From NCBI GenBank assembly GCA_977017645.1, contig OZ360229.1, forward strand, positions 26,288,001 through 26,352,000: a stretch of 64,000 nt of DNA. The letters are read 5' to 3'. Shown here piece after piece: positions 2,917 through 47,229 of the stretch (within the stretch, counting starts at the first letter, position 1; every line of letters starts with the position of its first letter). The notes beneath the pieces were generated by a model. That model searched no databases and was not told the origin of the DNA. It saw only the letters and a program-made list of their open reading frames with translations. The DNA comes from Torpedo marmorata. Its lineage: Eukaryota. Made by a program: the position numbers and the translations under genes.

Positions 2917-4044
2917 ATGCGCGAATCAGGAAGATCACGTGAAGCACAGCGACCTCCGTCACAGGAGTACGTTAGAAGAAAAGACGCTCCCCAGACTGTA
3001 TTACAGCTGGGGGAGCTAGAAACATTGTCGGAGTCGGAAACCAGAGAGAGAGAGGCCCAACAGTTTGAAGAAGGGGACAGTGAGGAGTATGAACCATACC
3101 CAGAAGAGGTTATAAAGGATATTGGATCTATAAAGAATACTCAACAAAGAATATTACAAGCCATTACTAGGCTTGAACAACATATGCAGAGTGAATTTAA
3201 AGAAGCAAAACAGAATATGAAGAAAATGGAAACAGCTATGGATAAGATGGAGGTGAGAATGCAAAAGATGGAAGATGATGCTAAAATTAATTATGATGAT
3301 TTTGTGGACTATAGAGAAAGAGTGGATAAATTGGATGATTCATTTACTGGCTGGGAAAAGCAAAGAGATCAGATATTACAAAAGATGGATCAGATGGAAA
3401 ATCAAAGCCGAAGAAATAATGTTAAGATATTGGGATTACCTGAAGGTATGGAGCCGCAAGATCCAACTCAATTTTTTCAAGATTGGCTTATGCAAATATT
3501 TACTTTGGATAAACCAGTGGAGTTGGAGAGAGCCCATAGAATTGGAAGACGAGATCAGATAGATCGGAGACCTCGTCCAGTTTTGCTGAAATGTCTTAGA
3601 TATCAAGATAGAGAAAAAATAATAAGAATGGTGATTCAGAAGTCAAGAGAAAGCGGGACTCCGTTGTTGATTGATGGTAACAGAGTGCTTTTTTATCCAG
3701 ATCTAAGCTCGGCTGTGGTTAATAAGCGGAAGGAGTTTAACCTTACGAAGCAAATATTATGGCAGAAAGGGTATAAGTTCTCGTTTAAATTTCCTGCGAC
3801 TTTGAGAATTCAAAATGATGGAGATAAATCTATCTTATTTATGGATCCCCAGCAAGCACTTATTCATGCGAGAAGTCTTCCTCGTTTGCCTGGAAGTTAT
3901 AATTTGATTGCACGGCGACAAGAGCAAAACCGAGAAGATCAGCAAGGTCAAGTGGTGCCACCGTTGGTTGCGTCAGGAGAAGAAAATATTTTGGTTCAAG
4001 TCGAAGGAGAACAAGAAGAACTGGATTTGGGAGGAGTTAATTGA
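2917..4044 (+). CDS. L1 ORF1p (coiled coil + RRM + CTD); open frame, extreme N-terminus possibly clipped at the inversion junction
   Basis: Heptad region followed by RRNNVKILGLPE, ELERAHR, RPRPVL and FYPDLS motifs typical of L1 ORF1. Confidence 0.85.
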   Translation: MRESGRSREAQRPPSQEYVRRKDAPQTVLQLGELETLSESETREREAQQFEEGDSEEYEPYPEEVIKDIGSIKNTQQRILQAITRLEQHMQSEFKEAKQNMKKMETAMDKMEVRMQKMEDDAKINYDDFVDYRERVDKLDDSFTGWEKQRDQILQKMDQMENQSRRNNVKILGLPEGMEPQDPTQFFQDWLMQIFTLDKPVELERAHRIGRRDQIDRRPRPVLLKCLRYQDREKIIRMVIQKSRESGTPLLIDGNRVLFYPDLSSAVVNKRKEFNLTKQILWQKGYKFSFKFPATLRIQNDGDKSILFMDPQQALIHARSLPRLPGSYNLIARRQEQNREDQQGQVVPPLVASGEENILVQVEGEQEELDLGGVN

Positions 4045-4309
4045 ATTTATACTGTATGGTTTTATATTGATCTATTGGGGGGGGGTGGATATATTGGTAC
4101 TTCTTCCGAACCAATCACCACCTTAGCGGCGGAAGCTGCTACTCGAACAATGGAGGGGGGTAACACTGAGTTATCTGTGTTTTTTCTAAAAGGGTTTTTC
4201 TTATTTCTTTTTCTTTCTTTTATTTCATTTGAGGAGAGAATAGTTAAAATGCAATTTAGGAGGGAATCGCTAATAGACATGATAGATAGACAAAGATTAC
4301 AATGTGGTT

Positions 4310-5749
4310 ATGATGGATTCTAGAAGTATAAATTTAGTAAGTATTAATATAAATGGGCTTAATAATCCAATAAAGAGGAAAAGAACTTTGGCATACATGA
4401 AAAAGTTGAAAGTAGATATAGCTTTTTTACAGGAAACTCATTTAACAGAGGTTGAGCATCAGAAATTAAAAAGAGATTGGGTTGGACATGTTGAAGCTTC
4501 AACATTTAATTCTAAAGCTAGAGGAGTTGCAATTTTAGTTAATAAGAAATTACCTTTTAAAATACAGTCGGTAGTAGTAGATGTGGTAGGTAGATACGTT
4601 TTGGTTAACTGACAGATTTATTCAGAATTTTAGACACTTATGAATTTATATGTTTCAAATCCAGATGATGAACAATTTATTCAAGATGCATTTTTACATT
4701 TATCAGATGCTAAAGATAATATTTTAATTAGGGGGGATTTTAATTGTTGTCTGGATTCAATCATGGATAGGACTTCTAGATCGTTAGTTAGGCCTAAAAT
4801 AGTTAAAAGAATTATAAATTTGATGAAAGATTTGAATTTAATAGATATTTGGAGGAAATTGAATCCTAGAGAGAAAGATTATTCCTTTTATTCTTTTAGA
4901 CATGATTCATATTCTAGGATAGATTTGTTTTTAATATCTTCGCAAATTCAAGATAGAATATCACAGGTATCATATAAAGCGAGAATAATTTCAGATCATT
5001 CACCTTTGTTAATGACATGTGTAATTCCAGAAAAAGAGAAAACTATATTTAATTGGAGATTTGATTCATCTTTATTGAAAAGGATAGATTTTTGTGAATA
5101 TATGAGAAGGGAAATTCAAGAATTTTTGAGGATAAATGATCAATCAATTAATGATAAATTTATAATTTGGGAAACTTTAAAGGCTTATCTTAGAGGTTTG
5201 ATAATAAGTTATTTGGCAAAAATTAAAAAAGATTATTTGAAAGAAGCAGAAAAATTAGAGAAAGAGATTGAGATTATGGAAAAAGATTTACAGAGAAATA
5301 AATCAATTCGTAAGAGAAATTGTTTAATGAGGAAAAAGTTACATTATAATTTATTACAAACGTATAAAACGGAAAAATTAATAGAAAGAATGAAACAAAG
5401 ATGTTATGAATTAGGAGAAAAGGCTCATAAAGTTTTAGCATGGCAATTGAAAAAGGAACAAGTTTCTAAAACTATAAATGCTATAAAGAAAAAAAATACT
5501 GGTGAAATAACTTATAAACCCCAAGAAATAAATGAATCTTTTAAAGATTATTATCAGAATTTATATAGATCTCAGGTTGTTCAGGATGATTTGAAAATTA
5601 ATAGATTCTTATCTAGAATTACTTTACCTAAATTAAATACTCAAAATAAAAATTTTTTAGACTTACCTTTTATGATGAGAGAAGTTAATGAAGTATTATC
5701 GACGTTAAAAAGTGGTAAATCCCCTGGTGATGATGGATTTCCAGTAGAG
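4310..5749 (+). pseudogene. L1 ORF2 APE endonuclease and linker (inverted segment)
   Basis: NINGLN, FLQETH, GDFN, SRIDLF, SDHSP, ending at KSPGDDGFPVE; two in-frame stops at about 4610-4635. Confidence 0.92.
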
Positions 5750-6020
5750 CTTCAAATCTTATAGTAAAGTGTACTATAAATACGTTGGAGAAACCATTTC
5801 TGGAAAATCAGCGATATAATTGATGGATGTTGTGGTGAAACTCGTTTGTTGAATAGCAGCACATTACATTCATCTGAAGTGGTAGGCATAAGTCTGTGGA
5901 TTCCTGTGTATCTTTGGCAAGTTAGAACACAGATTGGATTTGCTGCCGCTGGTCCATTGGGGACTGTTGATTTGGCTAGTGTTGTGTATGCTTGAAGGAC
6001 AGTGGAACAAGATGAGTAAA

Positions 6021-9000
6021 ATGGCTGCAGCAGCCGCTGACGCAGCAACCTCTGATGTTGCTGTTAAGGACCAATGTATTGAAGGCATGCAGGTTGCGGA
6101 TATTAAAGAAGAATTTAAGCGAATTAAACTAGATATAAGTGGAAATAAAAGGGTTCTCATCGCAAGACTGAAGCTGGCAAAGGAAGATGTGGTTTTGTTA
6201 GATGAACAAGAAGATAGCCAATGTGGAAATGGCTGAAATTATGTCACCAAATGATGAAGAAAATGAAGAGGATGAAGATGCAAAAGATGTACAATTCGAA
6301 TTGGTGAAGGAGGTAAGTAAGAAGACAACATATGATCTGCAGGACGAAATACAAGCAAGTGACAGTGTCTCAAATGCTGAAAGCAGGAGAAACAAACGAA
6401 GTTCTGGTTCGAGCTCCAGAGTTTCTCGTACTTCAAGTTCTGCATCGTCACATACAAAGATTGAAGTTGACTTGGCCGCTCTTATTGCACGACAAAATTC
6501 TCTTAAGGATAAACATGTTTTAGAAGAACAGGAGGAGGAAATAAGAGAATAGGAGGAACAGCTGAGGCAGACAACAGGAGGAGCAGCTGAGGCAGAGTCA
6601 ATAGGAGGAGCAGCTAAGGCAGAGCCAACAGGAGGAACAGCTGAGGCAGAGACAACAGGAGGAGCAGCTAAGGCAGAGTCAACAGGAGGAACAGCTAAGG
6701 CAGAGCCAACAGCTAAGGAAGAGACAAGAGCAGCTAAGAAAGAGAAAAGAGCAGCAGGAGCTGAAAACAAATATTGCTATTGCCATGGCCAGAAAGAAAG
6801 CAATAGAAGGCTCAATGGTATCTGGTGTTCAGAGTAAATTATCTAAAGTGTCTGATAATAAAAGGTCATATTTTAAAAAAGAGTCACAGGGAAAGAAACC
6901 AACCAAAAAGGTAGATATTTTAGCAACAGGGGTACAAGACTTGCAAATACAAGGACAAATCCTTCAAGAGCATAGTGGTATCGAGTCACATGTACCAGTG
7001 GTAGGTAACATCTGAAGACAAAGTTGCGGCTTGGGTTCGGTCGAACGATGCAGCTCCCTTGTCATTTGAGTCAAGCATCAGAAATATGGGAGGAACTACA
7101 CCAGTGAGGTTTCCAGATAAATTACCTGTAACAAGAGGTGGTGAACAGAGCAATGTATTGTCATCCAAGGGAAGACAAAATGAAATTGCTGCATCATTGA
7201 TTCAGTTACAGTCTCTCTCTTCTTTGCCTAAGAAAGAGATAAAAACATTTGATGGTGATCCACTTCAGTACCAAGCGTTCATGAGATCTTTCAAACGCAA
7301 TATTGAAAATAAATGCCAAGAAACTGATGAATGTCTTTATTATTTGGAAATGTTCACAGAAGGACATCCAAAAGAACTTGTAAAGAGTTGTCAACATATG
7401 TCCTCAGACAGAGCTAAATCTTTATTAAAACAACATTTTGGCAACAAGCATCGAATTGCTTTAGCTTATATGGATAAAGCTCTTAAATGGACATCAATAA
7501 AACAGAATGATGTAAAGGCTCTACAAGCATATACTCTATTTTTAAGAGGATGTTGTAATGCCATGGAAGATATCGATAATATTCATGAGCTTGAAGTGCC
7601 TGGTAATATGTGAATCATCTTAGAAAAATGATCTTACAAGTTGTGGGATAGATGGAGAAATTTGGCTTGTGATTTACAAGAAAAGTACAGTCGAAGAACT
7701 ACTTTAAAGGACTTGGTAAATTTTCTTGAACGACAGGTGTACATTGAAACAGATCCAATATATGGAAATACCAGAGACAATTCAATGGGGAACAAAGATG
7801 TAAGGAGGTCTAACTCACAGCCTAGTCCGAAATTGAAAAGGAGTACTTTTGCTACTAATGTGTCAGATTAAAAGATAAAGTAAATAAGGAAAAGGAAAGT
7901 TTGACTGATGAGAAGAGTTGTTTGTTCTGTAAAGGTGGACATACTTTGGAAATGTGTTTACGTTTGGGAAAAAAAGGAATATAATGAGATCGCTTTTTTA
8001 AAGGAAAATGGAATATGTTTTAGGTGTCTGTGTAAAGGGCACATCAGAAAAAACTGCGAGAAGCGAATTATCTGTAACATATGCAATTTGAAACATCCTA
8101 GAATTTTTCATATCCATCAAAGAAAGAAGGAATTGGAAAAGGAGCAAACAGAAACAAAGGAAACAACAGAAAACAATGTTATAACCTCGGTTCAGACAAG
8201 TGGTCTTACCGGGGTCGGTATAGATAACTGCGAACTTTTAATAGTGCCTGTACAAGTCAAGACCAATAAAGGGGATGCAACAGTACATACATATGCATTT
8301 CTTGACCTAGGCAGTACTGCATCTTTTTGCATGGAAGGACTAATGAACAAACTTAATATTCAAGGAAGAAGGTCAAGAATTATGTTGAAAACCATGGGAC
8401 AAGAAAAGGTCGGTGAAACCAGCATTGTGTCAGGCTTAGAAGTAGCTGGATTGGATGACAAAAAAATTTGTGATCTTCCAATGTTATATACTCAAAAGAC
8501 TATGCCTGTGCACGAAGGAAACATTCCTCATCAAAATGATTTCCATCATTTGTCTTATCTATGGAAGGTTTATTTACCTGAAGTTAACTCTGAGATAGAA
8601 ATGCTGATTGGTTCAGATGTACCAAAGGTTTTGGAACCACTAGAAGTAATATGGAGTAGAGGGAATGGACCTTACGCTGTTAGAACCAAGCTTGGTTGGA
8701 CAATCAATAGACCATTGGAAAGAAATAATGATATTGCTCAGGAACAGTTAGCGATAAATATTAACAGGATTTCGGTTGTGAAAGTTGATGAGTTAAGGGA
8801 AGAGCAAAAGACTGTGATTAAGAAAGTCACTTTTGAAGAAAAGAAAATAGATCAATGTGAAAATAAATCAAAGGTATTTAAAACAACATTGAAAGAATTA
8901 TTTTCATCAGAAATGGATGAAAATGAAGTATTAGAAGATGTTGCAAATAATACTATTGATTATTCATGTGTATTTGAATCAGATACAGGAATAAAACTAG

Positions 9001-9892
9001 TGACTGAGAACAAATTTGAAAGTAGGTTTTGTAGTTCGGAGGTTACAACAGACAAAGGCCATGAAGAAATGTTGCAATGTGGTGTAAAACTGGAGAACAC
9101 AGGAAATTGTGCTGCTCGGAATGAAGAAGAATGTGAATGATAATTTAAATGCAATTAAATTCAGAGAACAAAATGTTGAAAGGGGAATTGGAAATATTAG
9201 ATAATCATGAAAACAGTAAACAGAAAGATTTAATTGTAAGTAAAATTCGCAAAATCAGAAAGCGGAAGAAAGGAATGACTGCTGAAGAAATAAATACAGT
9301 TATTGAGGAAAGAGATTCAGCATTATCAAAATGTAAAAGGTTAGAGGAAGAGATTAATATTTTGAAAGAGAACAAGTTATTGGTTAAAACACAAAACAGT
9401 TGATTATAGAAAACAATCAAGAATGTAAATTGAATGTTCAGCTACAAACAATGAAAAAAGTGATATTGTATTGCAGAAATGTAACAAGCAAGATGAAGAA
9501 ATTCAAAAATTTCAAGTTTACCACAACAGGGTTGATAATAGAAACACCAATGTCTCACATAATATTTTCACTTCAGATCAAGTTATTAATTTCTCGCAAG
9601 GAACTGAGACGGAATTGAAAGCTGCAAAATTGGATTTGGAATTGCATGAAAAGGCAATAGAAATCAGAGTGGTTAAAGAGACTCGTTTATTAAAATCGAG
9701 AAGATCAGATAAATATTCAAATTCTAGTTCTAAGAGTTTAAATTCTTCACATGAGAAGTGGAATGCTGAAGAAAGGAATAAAGTGAAACGACATGCTGAA
9801 GAAGTGCCTCGTGTTAAATTTTGTTTGAGGAAGATTTGAGGTTTACTGGTCGACGTTTTAACTCAAATATTCTGGAGATAAAAGAACTTTGA
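6021..9892 (+). pseudogene. Chimeric polyprotein: SAP domain - BEL gag - zinc knuckles - aspartic protease - MIPOL1-like coiled coil (disrupted)
   Basis: ORF pieces at 5934, 6202, 6785, 7059, 7641, 7908, 9149, 9400 and 9471 are colinear with copy 2. AAAATGG start at 6021 and stop after KEL at 9890. Confidence 0.8.
6546..6765 (+). repeat. About 27-bp coding minisatellite (GGAGGAGCAGCTAAGGCAGAGCCAACA; EEQLRQSQQ)
   Basis: About six clear units plus degenerate ones read directly. Confidence 0.85.
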
Positions 9893-10074
9893 GGAGACAT
9901 TGTAATTATTATGGACGATTCAGCTCCTCGAAACTCCTGGATACTTGGAAAAATTATTAGACTATTCAGGACAAAAGGGGACTTGTGCGTCAAGTTCGAA
10001 TTAAAACTAAGACCGGCTTTCTAAATAGACCTATTAACAAGGTCTGCCTTCTGTTGGAGACAGAGGAACTTTGA
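9893..10074 (+). pseudogene. BEL integrase C-terminal tail remnant (DUF5641-like)
   Basis: GDIVIIMDDSAPRNSWILGKII..DKRGLVRQVRIKTKTGFLNRPINKVCLLLE. Confidence 0.8.
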
Positions 10075-10274
10075 TAAATACAACCTGACTTTATTTGTTG
10101 TTGTATACTTCACAGGTTACAGACTTTTGTTGATTCAGAGTTATGGTAAACTCTGGTCTTATGAAGAAAGAAGATTTGTATATTGTTTGAATGTTATATG
10201 GTTATTGTTATTTGTAATTGATTGTGTAGTTATTATTTAAGACATTGTGTCTCGTTATAATAATTAGGGGCCGG

Positions 10275-10817
10275 TGTAAGAGCCGTAGGTTTAGTTACAT
10301 ACCTTCTTCGCGGCGTTCCGATGGTCTCGGCGGGGTTCGGAGGAGTCGCGGTGTTTAGTAGTTCGTGCTGGGCCTATTTAGTACTCTGCACATGCGCGAG
10401 AGTGCCGACGGGCGCATGCGCAGTTGGGAAGTGACGGCAGTATGCGCGGTGGAGTATGCGCGGTGAGCATGCGCGAATCGGGGAAGAAAGAATAGAAAAA
10501 GATGGCGGCTTACAGGAGGGTGAGTGAGATCGCTATATCTTTCATTGACCGTCAAAAAAATGTCAAAAGAATGTTTAATGTAACGTTTAAAGGAAGTTTA
10601 TAGATGTTTTGAAGAATCGTTATTAATCATCGTTATCAAGAATTGTTTATATTTCATTAAAAAAGATATTTAAGTTATTGAAGATTGCTACAAGTCATCA
10701 TGTGTTAATAAACATTTTGAACATATTGGACTTTGTTAGTAAATTAATTGAAACACGTCAAGAACAAGTATCTCACCTTGCCTCCAAGTGACTATTTGTT
10801 GGATTGAAGTCTCTATA
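10275..10817 (+). repeat. 3' LTR of BEL-derived copy 1
   Basis: Starts TGTAAGAGCCGTAGG after the PPT; CpG-rich 5' part; AATAAA near 10707; end matches 1-97. Confidence 0.88.
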
Positions 10818-10899
10818 TCAATGAACAATTATCAGTAAGTAGCTGTTAGTTGTGGATCTGCTGTTGCAGCAGAGATGGTTTAGTGAACCTGAAACATTA

Positions 10900-27369: not shown

Positions 27370-29645
27370 ATACAAAAGGACCCGCCTTGTTTGGAAGGGA
27401 TTGGTTGTCGCACATCCAACTGGATTGGAAGGAAATTGTTGTGGTGAATAACATACAAACTATGGGCGAAAAGAAATCAAAGCTGAAGCAGATGCTTCAG
27501 AAGTGTCAGACAGTTTTTGAGAAGGACCTGGAAAAAATTCAGGGAGTCCAGGTAAAATTGCAATTGGAACCGGAAGCCAAACCTAAGTTCTTTAAGCCAA
27601 GGACGGTACCTTTCGCGATTTAAAAAAAGGAATTGAGACGGAGCTCAACAGATTAGAAAACGAAGGAATACTCGAGAAACTTCAGTACAGCGACTGGGCA
27701 GCTCCTATTGTGCCGGTCAGAAAACCCAATGGTGAAATTCGAATTTGTGGGGACTATAAGGTCACAATTAACCAAGCACTGCAAGTTCCCGGACATCCCA
27801 TTCCGAGAGCAGAGGAATTATTTCAAGCTCTAAATGGTGGGAAAAAGTTCACGAAATTGGACTTATCACAAGCGTATCAACAAGTCGAATTGGACCCCGA
27901 ACCAAGGAAGTATGGGGCTATCAACACTCACCTGGAATTGTTCACTTACACCAGGATGCCATATGGGATATCATCAGCTCCAGCAATATTTCAAGCTGTC
28001 ATGGTCAAACTATTGCAAGGACTAAATGTTGGATGTTACCTAGATGACATCATCATAACACGTCGGGACGACGCAGAGCATCTAACAAACCTGGAAAAGG
28101 TCCTTGCCAGGTTAGAACAGGCTAAAGTCCGACTGCATCAAGACAAGTGTGTATTTATGGTACCCTCAGTAACGTATTTGGGATTTATGATTGACCGTGA
28201 AGGAGTCAGGATGGATACAGCTGGCACCGAAGCCGTTTGCCGTGCACCTTGCCCATCGAATCGAGCTGAGTTACAATCGTTTTTAGGTTTGGTTAACCAT
28301 TATCGGAAGCACATCCCTAACATGTCAACGCTGTGCAACCCGCTCAACCAATTGTTAAAAAAAGACCAGAAATGGTGCTGGAATGCGGAAACCGACAAAG
28401 GTTTCAATTGCTTGAAGAAATTGCTGATCTCAAGGGACAATGTTCTCGTTCATTACGACCCAGACAAGGAAGTGACCCTGGCTGTTGATGCTTCACCTAT
28501 TGGTTTAGGTGCGGTATTGTCACAAGTCACGGAAAAGGAGAACAACCGGTTGCATATGCTTCCCGCTCCTTGACGGCCTGTGAACGGAACTATGCGCAAC
28601 TGGAGAAGGAAGGACTAGCCATAATCTTTGGGCTTAAGCGATTTCACCAATACCTATATGGTAGGATGTTTACTTTAGTGACGGACAATAAACCACTGAG
28701 CTTGTTCTTAGGCCCCAAGAAAGGCATTCCTGTGTTAGCGGCGGCGAGAATGAAAGATGGGCGATGGAGCACGCGGCGTACGATTATGACCTAAAGCATC
28801 GTCCGGCAGACAAGAACAGCCATGCGGATGCATTATCGCGCTTACCTCTGCCTGTGACAGAACAGGCGGAAGGGAACATTAATTGGACAACGGAAGCCAC
28901 AGCGATCATCCAGGAACAACTTCACCACTTGCCTATTACAGCGAAGGCTATCAGCAAAGATGTACAGAAAGAAGCTAAACTGTCGAAGATTCTATACTTC
29001 ACCTTGAATGGGTGGCCAGAGGCCGACAGTATTACCCCCGAATTGAAAGCTTATCACACGGGGCGAAACAAAATATCAATTGAAGAGGGTTGCCTGTTGT
29101 GGGGAACAAGAACAATCATCCCCAAGAAATGGCAAGAGGCCATGCTAAAAGAGCTCCACACCAATCATCCAGATGAAGGCGCTGGCACGCATGCATGTCT
29201 GGTGGCCATCGATTGACAGTGACATTGAACAGATGGTGCGGAGATGTCACATCTGCCAAGAAATGCAACCGAAGGCACCCCAGGCCATGGAAATGGTCAT
29301 CACAACCATGGCACCGAATTCACATTGATTTCGCTGGTCCATTTATGGGGGGAAATTTTCTGATTATTGTGGATGCACACTCTAAATGTAGTGCCAATGC
29401 GGTCAATGACAACGGAAAAAAACAATTGAGGAACTACGAGGTGTGTTCACAGGGTATGGATTCCCCATAGAACTGGTTTCAGACAATGGACCTCAATTTG
29501 TGTCAGATGCTTTCAAACAATTTCTGCGAGGCAACAATGTGCGACACATATTATCTGCACCCTACCACCCTAGTACTAATGGGGAAGCGGAGCACTTCGT
29601 GCAGACGTTTAAAAGAGCAATGAAAGCAAAGAAGTCATGTACATA

Positions 29646-32927: not shown

Positions 32928-33507
32928 TCTCCAACTCAGGATGATGGGTAACTTGAGAGGAATATTTCAATGGAGGTGTTTTCTCATGCCCTTGTCTTGA
33001 GTAGTGGAAGCAGCAGATTCAGGAGATGCTGTGAAAGAAGATTTGCTGCATTTTCATTGAGTGTTTGGTGTACCACTAGTGGCTGGAGTGAATGTTTATT
33101 GTTGTGGGAACGCGTTACGTCATCACGCAAGTTACGTGGGTGACGGGATTACATAAGCGACATGGCAAGGGCGCGGTTTAGTTTTGTGTGCACCATTTTA
33201 CTTAGTGAATAAAGTATGCCAACTGCTCCACAAGAAGTGTCTGAATTAATGTGGATATGACAGACTGGCGACGAGGATTAAAAAAAAATCCAAACTCCGG
33301 ACGACGGAGCTACAGGATTTCAGCTAAAAAGAAATCAGAAGTAAAGGAATTTCGTCGGAATTAATGTCAGAAGACAACAGAACTTCTAAGAAAAGACTAT
33401 CTCTCTATATTGTAGGGACGAAAGGACCCGCATTGTTGGGAAGAGATTGGTTGACACACATTCCACTAGATTGGAAGGAAATTTGGGCCGTGAAGAAGGT
33501 ACAAACA

Positions 33508-35608
33508 AGATTTACCATTAGTATTAACGCTAGATGCTGAAAAGGCTTTTGATAAATTAGAGTGGAATTTTTTATTTAAGGTATTGGAGAAATTTGGCTT
33601 CGGAACTACATTTATTAATTGGATTAAAACTATATATAAAGAACCATCTGCTAAAGTAATTACAAATGGACAAATTTCTTCAAGATTTCCCCTGACTAGA
33701 TCTACTAGACAAGGATGTCCTTTGTCACCAGTGTTATTTACTTTGGCGATAGAACCTTTGGCAGAATTAGTTAGAAAAGATGTTAAAATTGTAGGTATTA
33801 AAGTTGGAACGGAAGAAGATAAAATTAGTTTATTTGCAGATGATGTATTGATATATATGACAAAACCTATTACATCTTTAGTACAATTGTCTGCTTTATT
33901 GAGAGAGTATGGGGAAATATCTGGATATAAAATTAACTCTGATAAAAGTGAAATTATGGCATTATCACAAGGGGATTATAGTAAATGTAAAGATATTACA
34001 CAATTTAAATGGGCAAAAGAAGGAATTAAATATTGGGAATAAAGATTGATACAAAATTGGCTAATTTATATAAATTAAATTATTTACCATTGTTTATGAA
34101 AATAAAAAAAATTTAGAAAATTGGAAAGATTTACCTATAACTTTAATGGGAAGAGTAAACTGTATTAAAATGAATGTTTTTCCAAGAATTCAATATCTTT
34201 TTCAATCAATTCCTTATGATTTAACTAAATCTTCTGCTTGGATTAGAATAGAATTAAATAATATAGGAGAAGATACTAAAGAAGGAGTTATTTATAAATG
34301 GGATTCTAAATTAATATCAACAAAAAGGAAAAATTCTCCTATTCTTAAACATCTGTTAGAAATTTGGAGTAAGATGGATAAAGAAATAGGAGGAAAAGGA
34401 ACGATTTCTCCTGATGCCTTTATATCAAAATGAACTTATTCCATTTACTATTAATAATCAATTATTTAAAATTTGGTTTCAAAAAGGAATTAAGAAAATA
34501 AATAATTGTTTTGAAGCTGGGAAATTTATTACTTTTCAAAGAATGAAAGATAAATTTAATATATTGGATAATACACTTTTTTCTTATTATCAAATTAGAG
34601 CATTTTTGGTTGAGAAATTAGGTTATAATCTGATTCTACCAAGACAGAATGAATTAGAATTATTAGTTACTAAAGGAGATGTAAATAAATTTATCTCTCA
34701 AATGTATAAATTGTTTCAGAGAAAAGTTCCTAAAGTAGGAATTCATAAATCAAGATTAAAGTGGGAATTAGATTTGAATGTAATAATAGATGAAAATCAT
34801 TGGAAAGAATTATGTAAGTTAAGTATGACGAAGATTATTAATGTCAGATATAGATTAGTACAATATAATTTTTTTTCATCAATTATATTTAACACCCAAA
34901 AAATTAAAGAAATTTAATCCGACATTATCAGGTTTATGTTTTAGATGTAATAAAGAGGAAGGTTCTTTTGTACATTCTACATGGTTTTGTCCAAAAGTTT
35001 ATGATTTTTGGTTGAAAGTTAAAATGTTTTTAGATAAAGTATTTAAGATTACATTTCCAATGGACCCTATGTTATTTTTATTTGGAGATATTAAAAAACT
35101 TAGTATTAAGATGAAATTAAATATGTATCAAATAGAATTTTTGCAAATTGCTTTAGCTGTTTCAAAGAAATGTATTGCTATTACTTAGAAATCTGATGTA
35201 GATTTAGGGTTAGAAAGATGGCATGCAGAACTTCGTTCATGTATACCACTTGAAAAAATTACTTACAATTTACGCAATAAGTATCATTTCTTTTTAAAAA
35301 TTTGGAGCCCATATATGAAAGTTGTTGGTTTAAGAATTTGAAAATCTCTGGATATCGGATCTCTGGCGAACCTAACCTCCATAATAGAATTAGTTTATAG
35401 ATTTAATTTTTAGATTGACATTCTCCTTATTCTATCTTTTTCTTTCTTTCTTTTTATTTTTATTTTATTAGATTAGTAGGGATGGGAGGGTTAGGGAGGG
35501 GAGGGTGGGAGAGGGGGTGAAAATATATCACAAGTATTTTGATAATTTTATATTTTATCTTATGTATTTTGTGATTTAAAATTTTAAATAAAATATTTTT
35601 TTAAAAAA
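33508..35608 (+). mobile_element. L1 LINE, 5'-truncated (RT to poly(A))
   Basis: LDAEKAFD, RQGCPLSP, LFADD; 15-bp TSD AAGAAGGTACAAACA at 33493-33507 and 35609-35623. Confidence 0.92.
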
Positions 35609-35623
35609 AAGAAGGTACAAACA

Positions 35624-36480
35624 GTGGATGACGAGAAATCAAAGTTACAACAAGTGCTTTTGAAATATCAATCCGTGTTTGGAAAAAGCCTGGGAAAAAT
35701 TCAAGGAGTCCAAGTCAAATTACAAGTAAAACCTGAAGCAAAAGCTAAGTTTTTTAAACCAAGGCCAGTATCTTTTGCGATAAAGAGGGGAATTGAGACC
35801 GAACTGAATAGACTAAAAGCGGAAGGAATAATTGAAAAACTTCAATATAGTGACTGGGCTGCTCCTATCGTACCGGTCAGAAAACCCAGCGGCAAAATAA
35901 GAATTTGTGGCGATTACAAGGTCACAATAAACCAAGCCCAACAAGTGCCCGGACATCCAATTCCGAGAGCGGAAGAACTATTTCAAGCCCTGAATGGCGG
36001 AAAAAAGTTCACTAAGTTAGACTTATCGCAAGCGTACCTACAAGTTGAAATGGATCCGGAATCAAAAAAATATGTGGCTATCAACACCCACCTAGGATTG
36101 TTTACGTATACGAGAATGCCATATGGGATCTCATCAGCACCTGGAATATTTCAGTCAGTGATGGATAAGTTATTACAAGGAATAAATGTTGGATGCTACT
36201 TAGACGACATTATCATAACGGGTTAGGACGACGCAGAACACCTAACTACCCTGGAAAAGGTCCTAGCCAGGCTAGAACAGGCTAAAGTTCGACTGCGTCA
36301 AGACAAGTGTGTCTTTATGGTGCCCTCAGTAACATATTTGGTGTTCACAATTGACCACGAAGGGGTCAGAATGAATACAGCGGGCACCGAAGCCGTTCGC
36401 AGAGCACCCTGCCCATCAAACCGAGTGGAGTTGCAATCCTTCTTGGGATTGGTTAATCATTATCAGAAGCACATTCCTAA
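35624..36480 (+). pseudogene. Gypsy 2 pol, RT part
   Basis: WAAPIVPV, ICGDYK, YLDD. Confidence 0.9.
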
Positions 36481-38293
36481 TATAACCATATAACCATATA
36501 ACAATTACAGCACGGAAACAGGCCATTGGGCCCTTCCAGTCTGCACCGAACCAAACATTCCTATCTAGTCCCACCTACCTGCACCCTGCCCATAACCCTC
36601 CACTTCCTTCTCATCCATATACTTGTCCAACTTTTTCTTAAATAATAAAATTGACTCTGCCGCCACTACTTCTCCCGGAAGCTCATTCCACACCGCTACC
36701 ACTCTCTGAGTAAAGAAGTTCCCCCTCATGTTACCTCTAAACCTCTGCCCCTTAACTCTTAGCTCATGTCCTCTTGTTTCAATCTCTCCTACTCTTAATG
36801 GAAATAGTCTATCCACATCCACTCTGTCTATCTCTTTCATAATTTTAAATACCTCTATCAAATCCCCTCTCAACCTTCTACGCTCCAAAGAATAAAGACC
36901 TAATAGGCTCAATCTCTCCTTGTACTCTACCTTCTTAAACCCAGGTAACATTCTGGTAAACCTTCTCTGCACTCTCTCCACTTTGTTGATATCCTTCCTA
37001 TAATTTGGCGACCAGAACTGCACACAGAACTCTAAATTAGGCCGCACCAAAGCCTTATATAATCTCAACATCACTTCCCAACTCCTATATTCTATGCAAT
37101 GATTGATAAAGGCCAGCATACTAAATGCCTTCTTCACCACCCTATTCACATGAGTTTCCACCTTCAGGGAATGATGCACCGTTATTCCTAAATCTTTCTG
37201 CTCTTCTGTATTCATCAATGCTCTCCCATTTACTACATATGTCCTGTTCTGATTCTTCTTACCAAAATGAAGCACCTCACACTTATCAGCATTAAACTCC
37301 ATCTGCCATTTTTCAGCCCACTTTTCTAACCAGCCCAAATCCCTCTGCAATCCTTGAAAACCTTCATTATCCACTATTCCACCTATCTTAGTATCATCTG
37401 CATATTTACTAATCCAGTTTACCACCCCATCATCTAGATCATTGATATATATAACGAACAACAATGGGCCCAATACAGATCCCTGAGACACACCGCTGGT
37501 CACCGGCCTCCAACCTGACAGACAATTATCCACTACCACTCTCTGGCCTCTCCCTTCCAGCCAATGTTCAATCCATTTGACTATCTCAGAATTTATACCT
37601 AAAGACTGCACCTTCCTAACTAACCTTCCATGCGGAACCTTATCGAAGGCCTTACTGAAGTCCATATAGACAACATCCACTGTGCTACCCACATCCACAT
37701 TCCTAGTCACCTCTTCAAAAAATTCAATCAGATTGGTGAAACAGGACCTTCCGCTCACAAATCCGTGTTGAGAGTTCCTGATCAGACCCTGCCTATCCAG
37801 ATATTTATAAGTACTATCTCTGAGAACTTTCTCCATTAATTTACCTACCACAGACGTCAAACTTACAGGCCGATAATTGCCAGGCTTCCTCCTTGAACTC
37901 TTTTTAAATAACGGAACCACATGCGCAATACGCCAATTCTCCGGCACTATCCCCATCTCTAATGACATTTGGAAAATCACCATCAGAGCCTCTGCTATTT
38001 CTTCACTTACTTCTTAAAGGTCCTGGGGAAGATCCCGTCGGGTCCCGGAGACTTATCCACCTTTATATGCCTCAAAAGCCCTAACACTACATCTTTCGTA
38101 ATCCCTATATTCTCCATATTTACCCAATTTGCTTTTTTTATCTCGCATATCTCAATATCCTTCTCCTTGGTGAATACCGAAGAAAAGAAACTGTTCAATA
38201 TCTCCCCCATTTCTCTAGGCTCCACACACAGTTTTCCGCTCTGATTCTCTAAGGGACCAATTTTGTCCCTCGCTTTCCTTTTACCATTAACGT

Positions 38294-38869
38294 TATTATG
38301 GTGACTTCGATCCAACAATAGTCACCTGGAGGCTAAGTGATATACTTGTCTTTGACGCGTTTTAATTAATTTACCAACAAAGTCCAATATGTTCAAAAGT
38401 CTTTATTTACACACGTGACTTGCAGTAATCTTCAATGACTTAAATATAAACAGTTCTTGAAAACGATGTATGATGAGTTTCTTTAAATGATTCTTTAACC
38501 AATTCCAAACTACAAAGTAACCAGTTCAATGTTCTGAAACGATGTATAAGACGTTATAAAACGGTCAATAAAGATATGGAAATTTCACTCACCCTCCTAC
38601 ATCTTATTCTTTCTCCTATTCTCTCATTCGCGCATGCCCCGTCGCTCCCATACCACTGCGCACCCTCCATCGCGCATACTACATTTCCCAATATACACCG
38701 CGCAAAATGACGTCACTCCAGACTGCGCATGCGCCCGTCGGCACTCCAGCGCATGCGCAGAGCACAGAACGGGCCGAGGACAGCCTACAGACAACGCGAG
38801 CGCTCCACAACCCGACGAGACATCGGAGCGCCGCAGCAAAGGTAAGTTAATGAGCCTACGGCTCTTACA
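38294..38869 (-). repeat. 3' LTR of BEL-derived copy 2
   Basis: Direct repeat of 43527-44101. Confidence 0.95.
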
Positions 38870-39065
38870 CCGGCCCCTAATTATTATAATTAGATGCAAT
38901 GTCTTGAATAATAATTACACTATAAATTATAAATAACAATAACCATAACATTCAAACAATACAAATCTTCTTTCTTCCTTGTTCATAAACCTAGAGTTTA
39001 CCATAACTCTGAAAAGTCTGTAACCTGTGAAATATACAACAACAAATAAAGTCAGTTTATATTTA

Positions 39066-39250
39066 TCAAAGTTCCTCTGACTCCAACAAAAGAGACAGAC
39101 CTTGTTAATAGGTCTGTTTAAAAAACCAGTCTTAGTTTCAATTCACACTTGACGCACAAGTCCCCTTTTGTCTTGAAAAGTCTCAATAATTTTTCCAAGT
39201 AACCAGGAGTTTCTTGAAGTTGAATCATCCATTATAATCACAATGTCTTT
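39066..39250 (-). pseudogene. BEL integrase C-terminal tail remnant
   Basis: DIVIIMDDSTSRNSWLLGKIIETFQDKRGLVRQV..KTGFLNRPINKVC. Confidence 0.8.
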
Positions 39251-42200
39251 TTAAAGTTCTTTTATCTCCATAATCTTTGAGTTAAAACGTCAACCAGTAA
39301 ACCTCAAATCTTCCTCAGACAAAATAGATACAGTTTTTCTTTTGAATTTAACACAAGGCACTTCTTCAGCATGTCGTTTCACTTTATTCCTTTCTTCAGC
39401 ATTCCACTTCTCATGTGAAGAATTTAAACTCTTAGAACTAGAATTTGAATATTTATCTGATCCTTTCGATTTTAATAAACACGACTGTTTAACCACTCTG
39501 GTTTCTATTGCTCTTTCCTGCAATTCCAAATCCAATTTTGCAACTTTCAATTCAGTCTCAGTTCTTTCTGAGAAATTAATAATTTGATCTGAAGTCAAAA
39601 TATCATGTGATACATTGATATTTCCATTGTCAATCCTGTTGCGACAAACTTGAAATTTTTTAATTTCTTCATCTTGTTTGTTACATTTCTGCAATGCAAT
39701 ATCACATTCTTTCTGCATTGTTAATTGTTGAACATTCAATTTACATTCTTGATTGGTTTTTAAAGACAACTGTTTTGTGTTATTAACCAATAACTTGTTC
39801 TCTTTCAAAACATTAATCTCTTCCTCCAAACTTTTACATTTTGATAATGCTGAATCTCTTTCCTCAATAACTGTATTCATTTCTTCAGCAGTTATTCTTT
39901 TCTTCCGCTTTCTGACTTTGCGAGTTTTACTTACAATTAAATCTTTCTGTTTACTGTTTTCTTGATTATCTAATATTTCCAATTCCCCTTTAAACATTTT
40001 GTTCTCTGAATTCAATTGCATTAAATTATCATTCACATTATTCTTTATTCCATCAGCACAATTTTCTGTGTTTTCCAGTTTTACATCACATTGCAATATT
40101 TCTTCATTAGTTTTGTCTTTTGTAATCTCTGAACTACAAAATCTACATTCAGATTTGTTTTCAGTCACTTGTTGTATTCCTGTATCTGATTCAATTACAC
40201 ATGATCAATAGTATTATTTGCAACATCTTCTAATACCTCACTTTCATCCATTTTTGATGAAAATAATTCCTTCAATGTTGTTTTAAATACCTTTGATTTA
40301 TTTTCACATTGATCAGTTTTCTTTTCTTCAAAAGTGATTTTCTTATTCACAGTATTTTGCTCTTCGCTTAACTCTTCAACTTTCACAACCGAAATTCTAT
40401 TAATATTTATCGCTAACTGTTCCTGAGCAATATCATTATTTCTTTCCAGTGGTCCATCGATTGTCCAACCAAGCATGGTTTTAACAGCATAAGGTCCATT
40501 CCTTTTACTCTCTATTACTTCTTTTGGTACCAAAACCTTTGGCACATCTGAACCAATCAGCATTTCTATCTCAGAATTAATTTCAGGTAAATAAACCTTC
40601 CACAGATAAGCTAAATGATGAATATCCCTTTGATGAGGAATATTTCCTTCATTCACAGGCATAGTCTTCTGAGTATATACACTTGGAAGATCACAAAATT
40701 TTTTGTCATCCAATCCAGCAACCTCTAAGCCTGAAACAATGTTAGTTTCAACAACCTTTTCTTGTCCCATGGTTTTTAACATAATTCTTGATCTTTTTCC
40801 TTGAATATTAAGTTTATTCATTAGTCCTTCCGTGCAAAAAGATGCAGTGCTGCCTGGATCTAGAAATGCATATGTTATTACTATTGCATCCCCTTTCTTG
40901 GTCTTGACTTGTACAGGCACTATCGAAAGTTTGCAGTTATTCACACCGGCCCCGGTAAGACCACTTGTCTGAACCGAGGTTATAACATTATTTTCTGTTG
41001 TTTCCTTTGTTTCTGTTTGCTATTTTTCCAATTCCTTGTTTCTGTTATGGATATGAAAAATTCTAGGATGTTTCAAATTGCATATGTTACAATTAATTCG
41101 CTTCTCGCAGTTTTTACTGATGTGTCCTTTACACAGATAGCTAAAACATATTCCATTTTCCTTTAAGAAAGCGATCTTTTCCTTATGTTCCTTCTTTTCC
41201 AATCGTAATCACATTTCCAAAGCATGTCCACCTTTACAGAACAAACAACTCTTTTCATCAGGCAAACTTTCCTTTTCCTTATTTACTTTGTCCTTTTCTT
41301 TACTTATAACTTGCACATTAGTAGCAAAAGTACTCCTTTTCACTTCGGACTAGACTGTGTGTTAGACTTCCTTACATCTTTGCCGATTGAATTATCTCTG
41401 GTATTTCCATATAGTGGATCCATTTCAACGTACACCTGTCGTTCAAGAAAATTTACCAAATCCTTTAAGGTAATTTTTCGACCGTAATTTACTTGTAAAT
41501 CACAAGCCAAATTTCTCCATCTATCCCATAACTTGTAAGGTAATTTTTCTAAGATGATTCGCATATTACTATGCTCTTCAAGCTCACGAATATTATCGAT
41601 TTCTTCCATAGCATTACAACATCCTCTTAAAAACAGAGTATATTCTTGCAGAGCCTTTACATCATTTTGTTTTATTGATGTCCATTTAAGAGCTTTATCC
41701 ATATAAGCTAAAGCAATTCGATGCTTGTTGCCAAAATATTGTTCCAGTAAAGCCTTAGCTTTGTCTAATCCTCTTTTTGAAGACATTTGTTTACAACTCT
41801 TTACCAGTTCTTTTGGATGTCCCTTTGTGAACATTTCCAAATAATAAAGACATTCATCACAATCTTGGCATTTATCTTCAATATTGCGTTTGAAAGATCT
41901 CATAAATGATTGATATTGAAGTGGATCACCATCAAAAATTTGTATCTCCTTCTTGGGTAAAGAAGAGAGAGACTGTAACTGAAACAATGATGCAGCAATT
42001 TCATTTTGTCTTTCCTTGGATGACAATACATTGCTCTGTTCACCGTCTCTTGTTGCATGCAATGTATCTGGAAACCTCACTGGTGTAGTTTCTTCCATAT
42101 TTCTGATGCTTGACTCAAATAACAAAGAAGCTGCTTCGTTCGACCGAACCCAAGCCGCAGCTTTGCTTTCAGATGTTACCATTGATACATGTGACTCGAT

Positions 42201-43070
42201 ACCAATATGTTCTTGAAAGGTTTGTCCTTGTATTTGCAAATCTTGTATCCTTGATTCTAAAATATCTATCCTTTTGGTTGGTTTCTTTTCCTGTGATTCT
42301 TTTTTTAAATATGACCTTTTATTATCAGACACTTTAGATAATTTACTTCTAGCACCAGATACCATTGAGCCTTCTATTGCTTTCTTTTCTACCTTGGCAA
42401 TAGCAATGTTTGCTTCCAGCTCCTGCTGTTCTTTTATCTGCCTTAGCTGCTCCTTCTCTTGTCTTAGCTGCTCCTCCTCTTGTTTTAGCTGCTCCTTTAT
42501 CTGCACCTCCTTTTGTCTTATCTGCTCCTCCTTTTGTTCTAAAATATGTTTATTCTTAAGCGTTTTTTGTTGTGCAAGAAGAGCGGCCAATTGAACATCA
42601 ACCTTTGTACGTGACGATGCAGAACTTGAAGTACGAGAAACTCTGGAGCTCGAACCAGAACTTCTTTTGCTTCTCCTGTTTTCAGCATTTGAGACACTGT
42701 CACTTGCTTGTATTTCGTCCTGCAGTTCATATGTTGTCTTCATACTTACCTCTTTATCCAATTCAAATTGTATATCCTTTGCATCTTCAACCACTTCAAT
42801 TTCTTCATCATTTGTTGACACAATTTCAGCCATTTCCATTTTATCTTCTTGTTCATCTAATGAAGCTGCCTCTTCATCCTTTGCCTGCTTCAATCTTTCG
42901 ATAAGAACCTTTTTATTTCCACTTATGTCCTTTTTCAGTCGCTTCAATTCTTCTTTAATATCCGAAACCTTCATGTCTTCAATACGTTGGTCCTCAACAG
43001 CAACATCAGCGGTTGCTGCGTCAGCTGCTGATACATCAGTAGCTGCTGTATCAGAGACTGCTGCGGCCAT
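39251..43070 (-). pseudogene. Chimeric polyprotein: SAP - BEL gag - zinc knuckles - protease - MIPOL1-like coiled coil (few lesions)
   Basis: ORFs 41340-43157, 41020-41202, 40195-40944 and 39290-40168 join once lesions absent from copy 1 are corrected; protease AFLDPGS. Confidence 0.85.
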
Positions 43071-43526
43071 TTTACTCGTCTTGTTCCTCTTTCCTTCAAG
43101 CATACACAACACTAGCCAAATCAACAGTCCCCAATGGACCAGCGGCAGCAATTCCAATCTGTGTTCTTACTTGCTAAAGATACACAGAAGGAGTCCAAAG
43201 ACTTATGCCTACCACTTCAAATGACTGTAATGTGCTGCAATCCACAAACGAGTTTCAACCACAACATCTGTCAATAATATCACTGATTTTCCAAAAATGG
43301 TTTCTCCAACGTATTTATAGGACACTTTACTATAAGATTTGAAGCTTTAAATCCCTCTCTGGCTGTTATTCATGGCAGATGGATGTGGATTACAAACTGC
43401 CTCCAACTCGAGGCATCTTCAAGATGGCCACCATTTTATTTTAAATATCAGTCCAAAGAACAGAGAGATTATTCTATCTTCTTTCCTTCAATTTTCTGTT
43501 CCAAACAGCCAGCTCTTTATTGACTA

Positions 43527-44101
43527 TATTATGGTGACTTCGATCCAACAATAGTCACCTGGAGGTTAAGTGCGATACTTGTCTTTGACGCGTTTTAATT
43601 AATTTACCAACAAAGTCCAATATGTTCAAAAATCTTTATTTACACACGTGACTTGCAGTAATCTTCAATGACTTAAATATAAACAGTTCTTGAAAACGAT
43701 GTATGATGAGTTTCTTTAAATGATTCTTTAAACAATTCCAAACTACAAAGTAACCAGTTCAATGTTCGAAACGATGTATAAGACGTTATAAAACGGTCAA
43801 TAAAGATATGGAGATCTCACTCACCCTCCTACATCTTATTCTTTCTCCTATTCTCTCATTCGCGCATGCCCCGTCGCTCCCATACCACTGCGCACCCTCC
43901 ATCGCGCATACTACATTTCCCAATATACACCGCGCAAAATGACGTCACTCCAGACTGCGCATGCGCCCGTCGGCACTCCAGCGCATGCGCAGAGCACAGA
44001 ACGGGCCGAGAACGGCCTACAGACAACGCGAGCGCTCCACAACCCGACGAGACATCGGAGCGCCGCAGCAAAGGTAAGTTAATGAGCCTACGGCTCTTAC
44101 A
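43527..44101 (-). repeat. 5' LTR of BEL-derived copy 2
   Basis: Begins TGTAAGAGCCGTAGG on the minus strand; direct repeat of 38294-38869. Confidence 0.95.
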
Positions 44102-45172
44102 AACGTATTTGTAAAAACCTTTTGGATTAATTTTCACCCTGCTTGCTATAGTCTCTTCATACCTTCTTTTAGCTTTCCTAATTCCTCTTTTAAGATTCTT
44201 TTTACATTCAATGTATTTTTCAAACATCTCCTTATTTCCATGCTTCTTATACTTAATGTACGCCTCCCTTTTTTTTCGAACCAAGTTTCCAATATTCCTC
44301 GAAAACCACGGCTCTCTCAAACCTTTTGCCCCTCCTTTTAACCTAACGGGAACATAAAGCTTTTGCACTCTCAAAATTTGATCTTTAAAAGAATTCCATC
44401 TCTCTACTACATCCTGTCCATAAAACAAATTGTCCCAATGCACACCCTGTAAGTCCTTTCGCATCTCCTCAAATCTAGCTTTTCCCCAATCAAAAACCTC
44501 AACCCTTGGCCCTGACTTATCTCTTTCCATAATGACATTGAAGCTGATGGCATTATGATCACTGGACCCGAAGTGCTCGCCAACACAAACCTCCATCACT
44601 TGACCTATCTCATTTGCTAACAGTAGATCTAACACTGCTCCTTCTCAGGTCGGTACCTCTACATATTGTTATAAAAAACTATCCTGCACACATTTCACAA
44701 ACTCCAACCCATCCAGCCCTTTCACAGAATGTGTTTCCCAATCTATATGTGGAAAATTAAAATCTCCCATAATCACAACCCTGTGCTTATCACAAATATC
44801 CACTACCTCCCTACAGATTTGCCCCTCTAGGTCTCGGTCCCCTCCGGGTGGTCTATAATACACCCCTACAAGTGTAACTTCTCCTTTCCCACTTCTCAGT
44901 TCCACCCAAATAGCCTCTGTGGACGAGCCCTCTAATCTATCCTGCCTAAGCACCGCTGTAATATTCTCCCTGACAAGCAATGCAACACCACCTCCTCTTG
45001 CCCCTCCGACTCTATCACACCTAAAGCAACGAAACCCAGGGATATTCAGCTGCCAATCACATCCCTCCTGCAACCATGTCTCACTGATTGCTACCACCTC
45101 ATACTTCCAAGTATCAATCCACACCTTCAGCTCATCCACCTTTTTTACAATACTCCTGGCATTAAAATATAT

Positions 45173-47229
45173 ATGTCCACCCTTTGCAGCCCGCTAAACC
45201 ATTTATTAAAAAAAGATCATAAATGGTGCTGGAATGATGAAACGGACAAAGTTTTTAATCGGTTGAAGGAACTGTTGACCTCAAATGATAATGTTCTTAT
45301 CCACTATGAGCCAGATAAAGAAGTGACTTTAGCTGTCGATGCTTCACCAACCACAGAAAAAGGGGAACAGCCAGTGGCATATGCGTCCCGCTCCTTAACG
45401 GCATGCGAAAGAAATTATGCACAAATAAAAAAGGAAGGACTGGCCATTATATTTGGTCTTAAACAATTTCACCAATACTTATACGGTAGAAAGTTCATTT
45501 TGTTGACTGATAACAAACCACTGAGTTTAATTTTAGGACTGAAGAAAGGTATCCCGGTATTAGCGGCGGCAAGAATCCAAAGGTGGGCGATGGAGCTTGC
45601 AGCGTATGATTATGATATAAAACATCGCTCTGTGGACAAGAACGGGCATGCGGACGCATTATCACGCTTATCCCTGCCCACAACAGAACAGAGGGAAGGG
45701 AATATCAATTGGATGGCAGAAGCCACAGACATCAACCAAGAACAACCGCATCAATTACCAATCACATCTAAGGCCATCAGCCAAGAAGTAAGAAAGGAGG
45801 CTACATTGTCAAAAGTTATGCACCTCACCTTAAATGGGTGGCCAGACGGCAAGAGCATCACCCCCGAACTAAGGCCGTTTTACACAAGGCGAAATGAAAT
45901 ATCCATTGAAGAGGGTTGCCTGCTGTTGGGGACAAGAACGATCATTCCACAAAAATGGCAGGAGGCTTTGTTACAGGAGATCCACACCAATCATCCCGGA
46001 ATGGTGCGGATGAAGGCGCTGGCACGTATGCACGTCTGGTGGCCAGAAATTGATAGGGACATTGAACAGCTGGTACGGAGGTGCCACATCTGTCAAGAAA
46101 TGCAACCAAAGGCACCTCATGCAGAAGCCAATCCATGGAAATGGCCGTCACAACCATGGCATAGGATTCACATCGATTTCGCTGGGCCATTCATGGGAGA
46201 AACCTTCCTAATTATTGTGGATGCACACTCCAAATGGCCTATTGTGTGGCTGATGCGATCAACAACAACAGAAAAGACCATCGAGAAATTACGCAGTGTG
46301 TTCGCAGAGTATGGGTTACCGATACAGCTGGTCTCGGACAATGGGCCTCAATTTGTATCGGATGCTTTCAAACGATTTCTAAGAAAAAACAATGTGAAAC
46401 ACATATTATCGGCACCATACCACCCGAGTACCAATGGGGAAGCCGAGCGTTTTGTACAGACTTTTAAAAGGGCAATGAAGGCCAGAAAGTCAAATGGAGC
46501 ATCCTGGAACCATAACATTGCAGATTTTCTGCTGTCATATAGAACAACGCCGCACTCGCCCACAAAACGCACGCCAGTGGAACTGATGTTTGGACGGAAC
46601 TTAAGAACACGACTTACTGCAGTACACCCAAATATCGGACTCCACATCCAACAATCAACATTACCAAACAAATCAACCAGATCTCTGGAGATTGGGGAAC
46701 CAGTACTTGTAAGAGATTATAGACAAAATAAAGAGACTCGGTAAGAGGCGTGCTCTTAAAAAAACTAAGCCCATGTTCATATTCTGTACTGGTTGGAGAC
46801 AACATATGGAAAAGACACATAGACCAGATAAGAGCAGTCGAAGACTACAGTTTCAATACAGCCACGGAAGAGCTCTTAGACGTTCCGGTTTGGACACAGC
46901 CAGATTTTGTGGCCCCTTGGAAAGCCCCGGTACCGGTTACAGAAATACCAGCAGGGAAGGCTGCGCCAGGGCACGAGGCTAGCCAAGCATCCGAAAGACA
47001 AACCATTGTGCCAAGGAACGAGGAGAATTTAGCTTCGAAAAGATCGGAAACTCGTACCCCTGTTCGGTGTTCTCCACTCCCAAGGAGATCCATGAGAGAA
47101 ATGAACGAGGAGAATTTAGCTGCTCCGGAAAGGTCAGAAACTCGTACCCCTGTTCGGTGTTCTTCACTCCCAAGGAGATCCCAAAGAGAAAGACACCCCC
47201 CAGCACATCTTAAGGATTATGTGCAGTGA
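45173..47229 (+). pseudogene. Gypsy 2 pol, RNase H and integrase
   Basis: VDASP, HPG..M...AR..VWWP..CHIC, DFAGP, DNGPQF, GEAERFV. Confidence 0.92.

Follow-up and report, generated by a model that had tools for sequence, protein, structure and literature searches.

The question raised by this locus is which RNA supplied the MIPOL1-like sequence that stands in an LTR retroelement of a ray at the place of the reverse transcriptase (RT). The window, by which we mean the whole stretch of 64,000 nucleotides that was analysed, encodes at 39644-39940 on the minus strand a peptide of 99 residues, which a preliminary description had read as a MIPOL1 coiled coil, free of introns, in frame with Gag and protease and captured from spliced mRNA. 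Its identity as MIPOL1 is borne out by the protein search which that description had called for. The best match, from 5.8 billion proteins, is MIPOL1 of Narcine bancroftii (E 8.2e-28; the single match among longer proteins), and a pairwise comparison aligns the two without gaps, with 67 of 102 residues identical (66%). Best matches of this kind point to a ray near the electric rays as the probable host. A phmmer search of the whole library returned 37 matches at E <= 0.001, ten of which were looked up (six named MIPOL1, two hypothetical or uncharacterized, two nameless), and MIPOL1 is also the top match in the ESM Atlas. The 304-aa open reading frame had no match among proteins of 167-532 aa, the only lengths in that search; Narcine MIPOL1 has 651 aa. 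Pfam, in a copy that lacks the MIPOL1 C-terminal model, returned generic coiled-coil matches and none to MIPOL1. Coiled-coil noise is nevertheless excluded because the segment is 80-82% identical to the mipol1 exons of the same genome at the DNA level, and the exact splice boundaries described below rule out the same artefact. Horizontal transfer, which a 3-nt deletion in common with Narcine MIPOL1 might have indicated, was considered and rejected: two old copies (L063, L071) are without the deletion, and the codon lost in the element differs from that missing in Narcine.

The peptide is part of a non-autonomous BEL/Pao LTR element at 38294-44101 on the minus strand, which together with an older copy in the same window has the following parts:

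43527..44101, minus: 5' LTR of about 576 nt with TG...TA ends, 98.3% identical to the 3' LTR
41340..43166, minus: Gag part, broken in the window copy (Pfam E 3.8e-9 and 6.1e-6)
about 42983-42882, minus: SAP domain (Pfam)
about 41936-41514, minus: DUF1759 (Pfam, over its cut-off)
40357..41019, minus: aspartic protease region; the backbone in common with the helper ends here (Pfam weak, E 0.094)
39937..40361, minus: BRCA1-derived piece, spliced over at least one host exon junction
39839..39944, minus: mipol1 exon F, 3' part (host exon map)
39734..39838, minus: mipol1 exon G, one codon missing (host exon map)
39639..39733, minus: mipol1 exon H to its splice donor (host exon map)
39638..39639, minus: junction of back-splice type, from the donor of exon H to the acceptor of exon B
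39566..39638, minus: first 73 nt of mipol1 exon B; an in-frame deletion of 81 nt comes next
39494..39563, minus: mipol1 exon C, part (91% nucleotide identity)
39273..39494, minus: piece derived from Elongin A (ELOA), without the BC-box that old copies have
39292-39290, minus: stop codon of the family, inside the ELOA piece
38870..39248, minus: untranslated remnant of the integrase C-terminus (DUF5641) and 3' leader, 89% nucleotide identity to the helper L113
38294..38869, minus: 3' LTR, with a short purine-rich tract before it
38289..38293, partner 44102-44106: target-site duplication of 5 bp
5745..10820, plus: second, older element with the same cassette, its MIPOL1 piece at 9209-9671

Paired LTRs, a 5-bp duplication and a Gag with DUF1759 followed by a protease place the element with BEL/Pao. 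RT, Peptidase_A17/RNase H and most of the integrase are absent from the window element and from three intact siblings, and it is therefore a non-autonomous derivative, in which the MIPOL1 segment does stand in place of RT, as had been proposed. LTR elements of the TRIM and LARD types are defined by having no coding capacity; the present family does not fit this definition, with frames of 1304-1370 aa in 20 copies that were picked for long frames. Over 44063-40357 the window element is 91.6% identical in nucleotides to the autonomous helper L113, in which DUF5641 is also found, and in the protease region 96%. The expected continuous frame is present in sibling copies; in the window copy the frames of Gag (41340-43166), protease (40195-41019) and the MIPOL1 segment (39290-40204) are three different ones, with frame-shifting indels near 43121, 41345 and 40204, so that the claim of an in-frame fusion holds for the family and fails for this copy. 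The element is inserted into older LINE-like sequence, the flanking open reading frames being ones that we take to be LINE-like. No tRNA gene was found in the 64-kb window. LTRs usually end in TG...CA, and those at 38294 and 44101 end in TG...TA instead.

The host mipol1 gene lies on contig C40, where exons A to I were mapped as single copies over 323 kb; all nine have GT donors, and the eight from B to I have AG acceptors. The captured segment is indeed intronless and spans two host exon junctions (39839/39838 and 39734/39733), so that the alignment to the host gene, likewise called for by the preliminary description, reveals crossed exon junctions and not one exon plus intron. The order of the exons in the element is F-G-H-B-C. 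The block of MIPOL1 residues 295-376 thus comes after, not before, the block 449-550, and the H-B junction lies five bases beyond the end of the peptide segment. An origin from spliced RNA stands, but the template was most likely not a linear mRNA, since exon H joins the upstream exon B.

Older copies preserve this arrangement, residue 553 of MIPOL1 directly adjoining residue 295 without a gap. Twenty-seven of them, selected as top MIPOL1 matches (L031-L050 were selected for long frames instead), were fetched and 26 tabulated; L072, with gaps near the junction, was left out. Exon H is exact to its donor in 25 of the 26 (29-30 of 30 nt), the remaining one having a short duplication beside the junction, and all 26 run on into exon B (23-30 of 30 nt matching) as opposed to exon I (6-9 of 30). 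Exons B to H total 780 nt and would form a stop-free circle, in frame. In the longest old copies circle positions 454-780 are followed by 1-260 in one 587-nt alignment at 92-96% identity, while the others are shortened or interrupted by insertions. Neither the window nor any of 32 loci contains exon A or exon I sequence beyond 1-2 nt, and there is no poly(A) tail, the ends of the arc joining BRCA1 and ELOA pieces. A true donor joined to an upstream acceptor, circle exons only and the lack of poly(A) are what characterizes circRNA retrocopies. Of the two AGs in a NAGNAG acceptor the junction takes the upstream one, and both of its boundaries are marked independently by Narcine isoforms. Microhomology at the junction amounts to 3 nt; among backward switches with at least 3 nt of microhomology only 9 of 18,928 products (about 5e-4) are splice-exact, and we therefore regard the junction as made by splicing.

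Back-splicing is the ordinary route to such a junction. Judging from these sequences, the MIPOL1 template was a circular RNA captured by the element, with a probability of roughly 0.8. Only one arc was copied, with no rolling-circle repeat. Among 20 intron pairs, 8 kb each, no special inverted repeats were found flanking exons B and H, and no sequencing run recorded as RNA contains the stretch. As side observations, one old copy (L068:7336-8455) carries a tandem duplication with a 405-nt unit across the back-splice junction, and at G000 C1:1498490-1518378 five junction matches occur at a spacing of 4,964 nt.

Several other origins of the junction have to be weighed against a circular template. 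A linear RNA with repeated exons, arising by trans-splicing or from a transient tandem duplication of exons B to H, would yield an identical splice-exact junction and would fit the capture of a single arc, and other origins of non-colinear junctions are treated by Dong et al. (PMC4897178). Against it stand the host locus of today, with one copy per exon, the failure of any exon outside B to H to be captured, and the circular Mipol1 RNAs that are listed by name for mouse and human in the accessible parts of two reports (PMC9888537, PMC8783515), the former including a check by divergent primers in mouse; we consider such an RNA unlikely. The accessible part of a further report concerns a lncRNA only (PMC7186711). 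A LINE may also have turned the circle into a processed pseudogene first, which the LTR element took up later via a read-through transcript, an order of events which the LINE-like open reading frames abundant in the window would permit and for which circRNA pseudogenes outside LTR elements provide a precedent (PMC4897178). In every copy examined, however, the arc is free of poly(A) and flanked by BRCA1 and ELOA (a lone pseudogene could hide among thousands), and the branch of 1.6% to the host circle would leave little time for an intermediate, which makes a LINE-borne detour quite improbable. Two separate switches on linear mipol1 mRNA, meeting at exon ends by coincidence, would draw on the microhomology of 3 nt and on the many switches and deletions that the cassette underwent; in view of the rarity of splice-exact products among the possible ones, this coincidence deserves hardly any credence.

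The segment has a BRCA1 piece before it and an Elongin A piece after it in a cassette of three genes, with all pieces in sense orientation. The BRCA1 piece (E 3.4e-70) matches the Narcine protein at residues about 201-413 and crosses the spliced junction of a 149-nt host exon with the large exon, a mapping that covers the piece beyond its first 30 or so residues; its nucleotide identity to the host exons is 72-77% in the window and about 91% in old copies. The Elongin A piece (E 6.7e-40; Pfam 1.4e-17) consists of sequence from five host exons spliced together, at 90-98% identity, and in old copies retains an intact motif, presumably the BC-box. DNA searches for the host exons of ELOA and BRCA1 were flooded by copies of the element. 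The ELOA donor is a gene on C41; a second Elongin A-like host gene (L120, C25:175336600-175338599) is 67-78% identical to the captured piece and is not the donor. Six old copies were translated: in L069 all three pieces lie in a stop-free frame of 550 aa, and in L057, L058 and L063 a single frame with isolated stops runs from the protease through the three pieces. The replacement of internal open reading frames by spliced sense host RNA is the hallmark of LTR-mediated retrocopies. Because three copies (L110, L124, L125) hold an additional 5' ELOA piece ahead of BRCA1, at two different junctions, the data suggest a once longer ELOA capture and a cassette assembled in several switches. Microhomology, measured to the present host gene, is 2 nt at the BRCA1-MIPOL1 switch point; one pol-BRCA1 junction has 5 nt, the ELOA-BRCA1 join has an overlap of 9-10 nt in two variants, and the MIPOL1-ELOA join includes about 20 nt that match neither gene.

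Two further observations concern these pieces. Over aligned codons of the cassette (39273-40361) the GC content drops from 39% to 29%, with G>A, C>T and C>A as the prevailing changes, a drift that points to strongly biased mutation when the element replicates. Narcine BRCA1 isoform X2 (P0065, residues 1-180) is without the RING Pfam matches of its relatives and has an N-terminus that looks Gag-like to us, possibly an annotation artefact.

The element is highly abundant. A 33-nt pattern of the young junction has 8,087 exact matches in the 6.2-Gb genome (control 0) and the matching pattern of the autonomous helper 262, about 30-fold fewer, both numbers being floors and not copy numbers. An open frame of at least 1200 aa occurs in 70 among the best 150 genomic matches, and the LTR pairs of 20 long-frame copies are 98.2-100% identical; the family is therefore young. 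Of 26 old copies, 7 have long direct repeats with 88-93% identity, which presumably are their LTRs. Autonomous BEL/Pao elements were represented by five loci fetched among 150 listed. Four of them (L113, L114, L116, L117) resemble the cargo element in their LTRs, SAP-Gag-protease part and 3' end, at about 90-97% identity, and differ from it in keeping RT, Peptidase_A17 and integrase; in L113 these lie in a frame of 2046 aa, and L114 retains RT, Peptidase_A17/RNase H and integrase as well. A young cargo copy is about 95% identical to L113 up to the cassette and again past it, as against only 65-77% in old cargo copies, for which no parent helper was found, L115 being alike at only 72-73%.

Two trees, the bootstraps of which are not fully settled, describe this history differently. 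In the protease tree (33 rows, two short rows dropped) the older copy at 5745-10820 of the window falls outside a clade (100/99) that unites the young cargo copies with four helpers. In the MIPOL1/cassette tree (38 rows) the order runs from the host and old copies through L109 and the 5745-10820 copy to the young copies, with the host circle inside the star of old copies on a branch of 1.6%. A single cassette lineage with exchange of its backbone would explain both discordant trees. The cassette region is also covered by four public runs with four organism labels. Listed contigs bridge the H-B junction in X2 (three pieces) and X11 (one piece, at the 31-nt limit, in what may be an RNA run) and contain the MIPOL1-ELOA join in X1, X2 and X11, and the BRCA1-MIPOL1 deletion joint is found in X1, X11 and X12. 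The element thus probably spans several species, and one of the runs may be from the source organism. At one locus (L055) a young cargo copy lies beside or inside an old one.

What the host sequences are kept for can be approached through the pattern of change. The window copy, which was not selected for its frame, differs from the host exons by 136 changes in 235 codons, spread over codon positions as 50/42/44. Under a simple neutral model, base-specific and position-blind, it has 86 amino acid changes against 91 +/- 7 expected and no stop codon against 8.5 expected (P about 1e-4). The three intact siblings give the same picture: none of the 5000 simulations for each was free of stops, and their amino acid change fits neutrality (P 0.13-0.27). 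The large deletions in the four copies compared (24, 120, 81 and 195 nt) have lengths divisible by three and keep the frame. Since residues drift neutrally and yet no stops appear where about eight are expected, selection appears to act on the open frame and not on the protein, and a conserved function of the MIPOL1 coiled coil is unsupported because the residues evolve neutrally. Purifying selection, as it might be read from a dN/dS of about 0.65, was rejected, the value being indistinguishable from neutral simulation.

A function of the tail protein may still have kept the frame open, as a coiled-coil or acidic spacer in particle assembly or, in old copies, through an Elongin A BC-box bringing in a Cullin ligase in the manner of Vif. 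The three pieces were captured in sense and in frame, for which the chance is 1 in 27 with three random junctions, the motif is intact in old copies, and the Nei-Gojobori dN/dS of the cassette is 0.64-0.72. Old decaying copies, however, show similar ratios of 0.5-0.9, the changes are even over codon positions with neutral amino acid change, and the BC-box is lost from the most expanded family, so that we regard a selected protein function as rather doubtful. Whether the cassette serves instead as translatable filler, holding the stop codon close to the 3' LTR, is, in our estimate, an even bet. From its stop codon to the 3' LTR there are about 420 nt, compared with about 200 nt in the helper, and a stop at the end of the protease would leave about 1.5 kb. 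Long-3'UTR decay acts on unspliced retroviral RNA. Post-termination ribosomes guide the piRNA processing of 3'UTRs, according to the available part of one study (PMC8514520). The filler may allow the unspliced RNA to escape either process.

The proposed route begins in a BEL/Pao particle, where pol would have been replaced as RT switched templates onto co-packaged host RNAs, namely spliced BRCA1 RNA, spliced Elongin A RNA and a circular mipol1 RNA of exons B to H, from which RT would have copied the 587-nt arc across the back-splice junction. The element would then make its own Gag-protease polyprotein with the host cassette as its tail and would borrow RT and integrase from an autonomous sibling, as the similarity between them suggests. 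Gag-protease and 3' ends would have been swapped with the autonomous lineage by recombination, in one direction or the other. The anatomy of the element, the map of host exons, the junction, the numbers of matches, the neutral drift free of stops and the disagreement of the trees are observed; the circle as an RNA, its co-packaging, the use of a helper and the reason for the open frame are what we infer. Taken as a whole, the account of a circle copied in a BEL/Pao particle, and of a BRCA1- and Elongin A-joined cassette that is required and translated but free in its sequence, recombined across helper lineages and multiplied to thousands of copies in several species, remains tentative, at somewhat less than even odds.

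The closest known case are the circRFWD2 pseudogenes of the mouse, with 33 high-confidence copies linked to MMERVK10C-int (Dong et al., 2016, PMC4897178), a study that left the mechanism of circRNA retroposition open. Both share the reversed exon-exon junction, circle exons only, the lack of poly(A), the LTR context and multiple copies. In the mouse, however, a mammalian ERVK carries a single-gene cargo in 33 copies, whereas here a BEL/Pao element of a ray carries a three-gene cargo with at least 8,087 exact junction matches, and the mouse report is without in-frame fusion, helper exchange or selection. LTR-mediated retrocopies as described in the accessible text of Tan et al. (2016, PMC5131818) are alike in the replacement of internal open reading frames by partial spliced RNA, in multi-gene chimeras, in sense bias and in later rounds as non-autonomous elements, and include one BEL example, from mosquito. 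Their examples are young or decaying, in contrast to the ray cargo, which stays open through about 20% divergence, and the main text as available contains no word starting with 'circ'. Maize Bs1, an LTR element with pieces of three unlinked cellular genes, is similar too, but it is a plant element and is described there without a circular template (PMC5131818). Packaging of circRNAs in HIV-1 and MLV particles is reported in the accessible part of a preprint (10.64898/2026.01.21.700838). Known already are thus circRNA pseudogenes with an LTR element in mouse and multi-gene LTR-mediated retrocopies; the novelty lies in a BEL/Pao element as carrier, in a cartilaginous fish as host, in a cassette that joins three genes in frame, in the number of copies, in the exchange with helpers and in selection that keeps a frame open. 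In the open-licence literature searched (listings and abstracts) the element is undescribed.

Because the LTR backbone, the switch points, the parent exons, the likely helper and a graded series of copies are present in one genome, the template-switch route is directly testable. The junction records a specific back-splice of a cartilaginous fish, including its NAGNAG choice, and neutral residues without stops point to a mobile element that is selected for the openness of its frame alone. A circle-derived cassette free in its sequence would, if real, preserve an ancient back-splice as a fossil and let selection for translation itself be studied in nature. At full length, 8,087 or more copies would make roughly 47 Mb. 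In the species concerned, the BRCA1, MIPOL1 and ELOA sequence in these copies can mislead the annotation of genes, the calling of circRNAs and the mapping of small RNAs, and it could give rise to piRNAs directed at host genes.

Some smaller features of the window complete the description. The older copy is apparently split, with an LTR end and leader at 1-292 and, between these and the rest, inserts at 303-5752 that we take to be L1-like. Its Gag Q/E-rich linker is lengthened by six copies of a 27-nt tandem repeat (6542-6739), and this linker is variable among young copies too. Retroelement fragments are repeated within the window, 33466-36226 with 558-2581, and 27596-29216 with 35588-36226 and 44936-46744; we presume them to be LINE-like and Gypsy-like RT frames.
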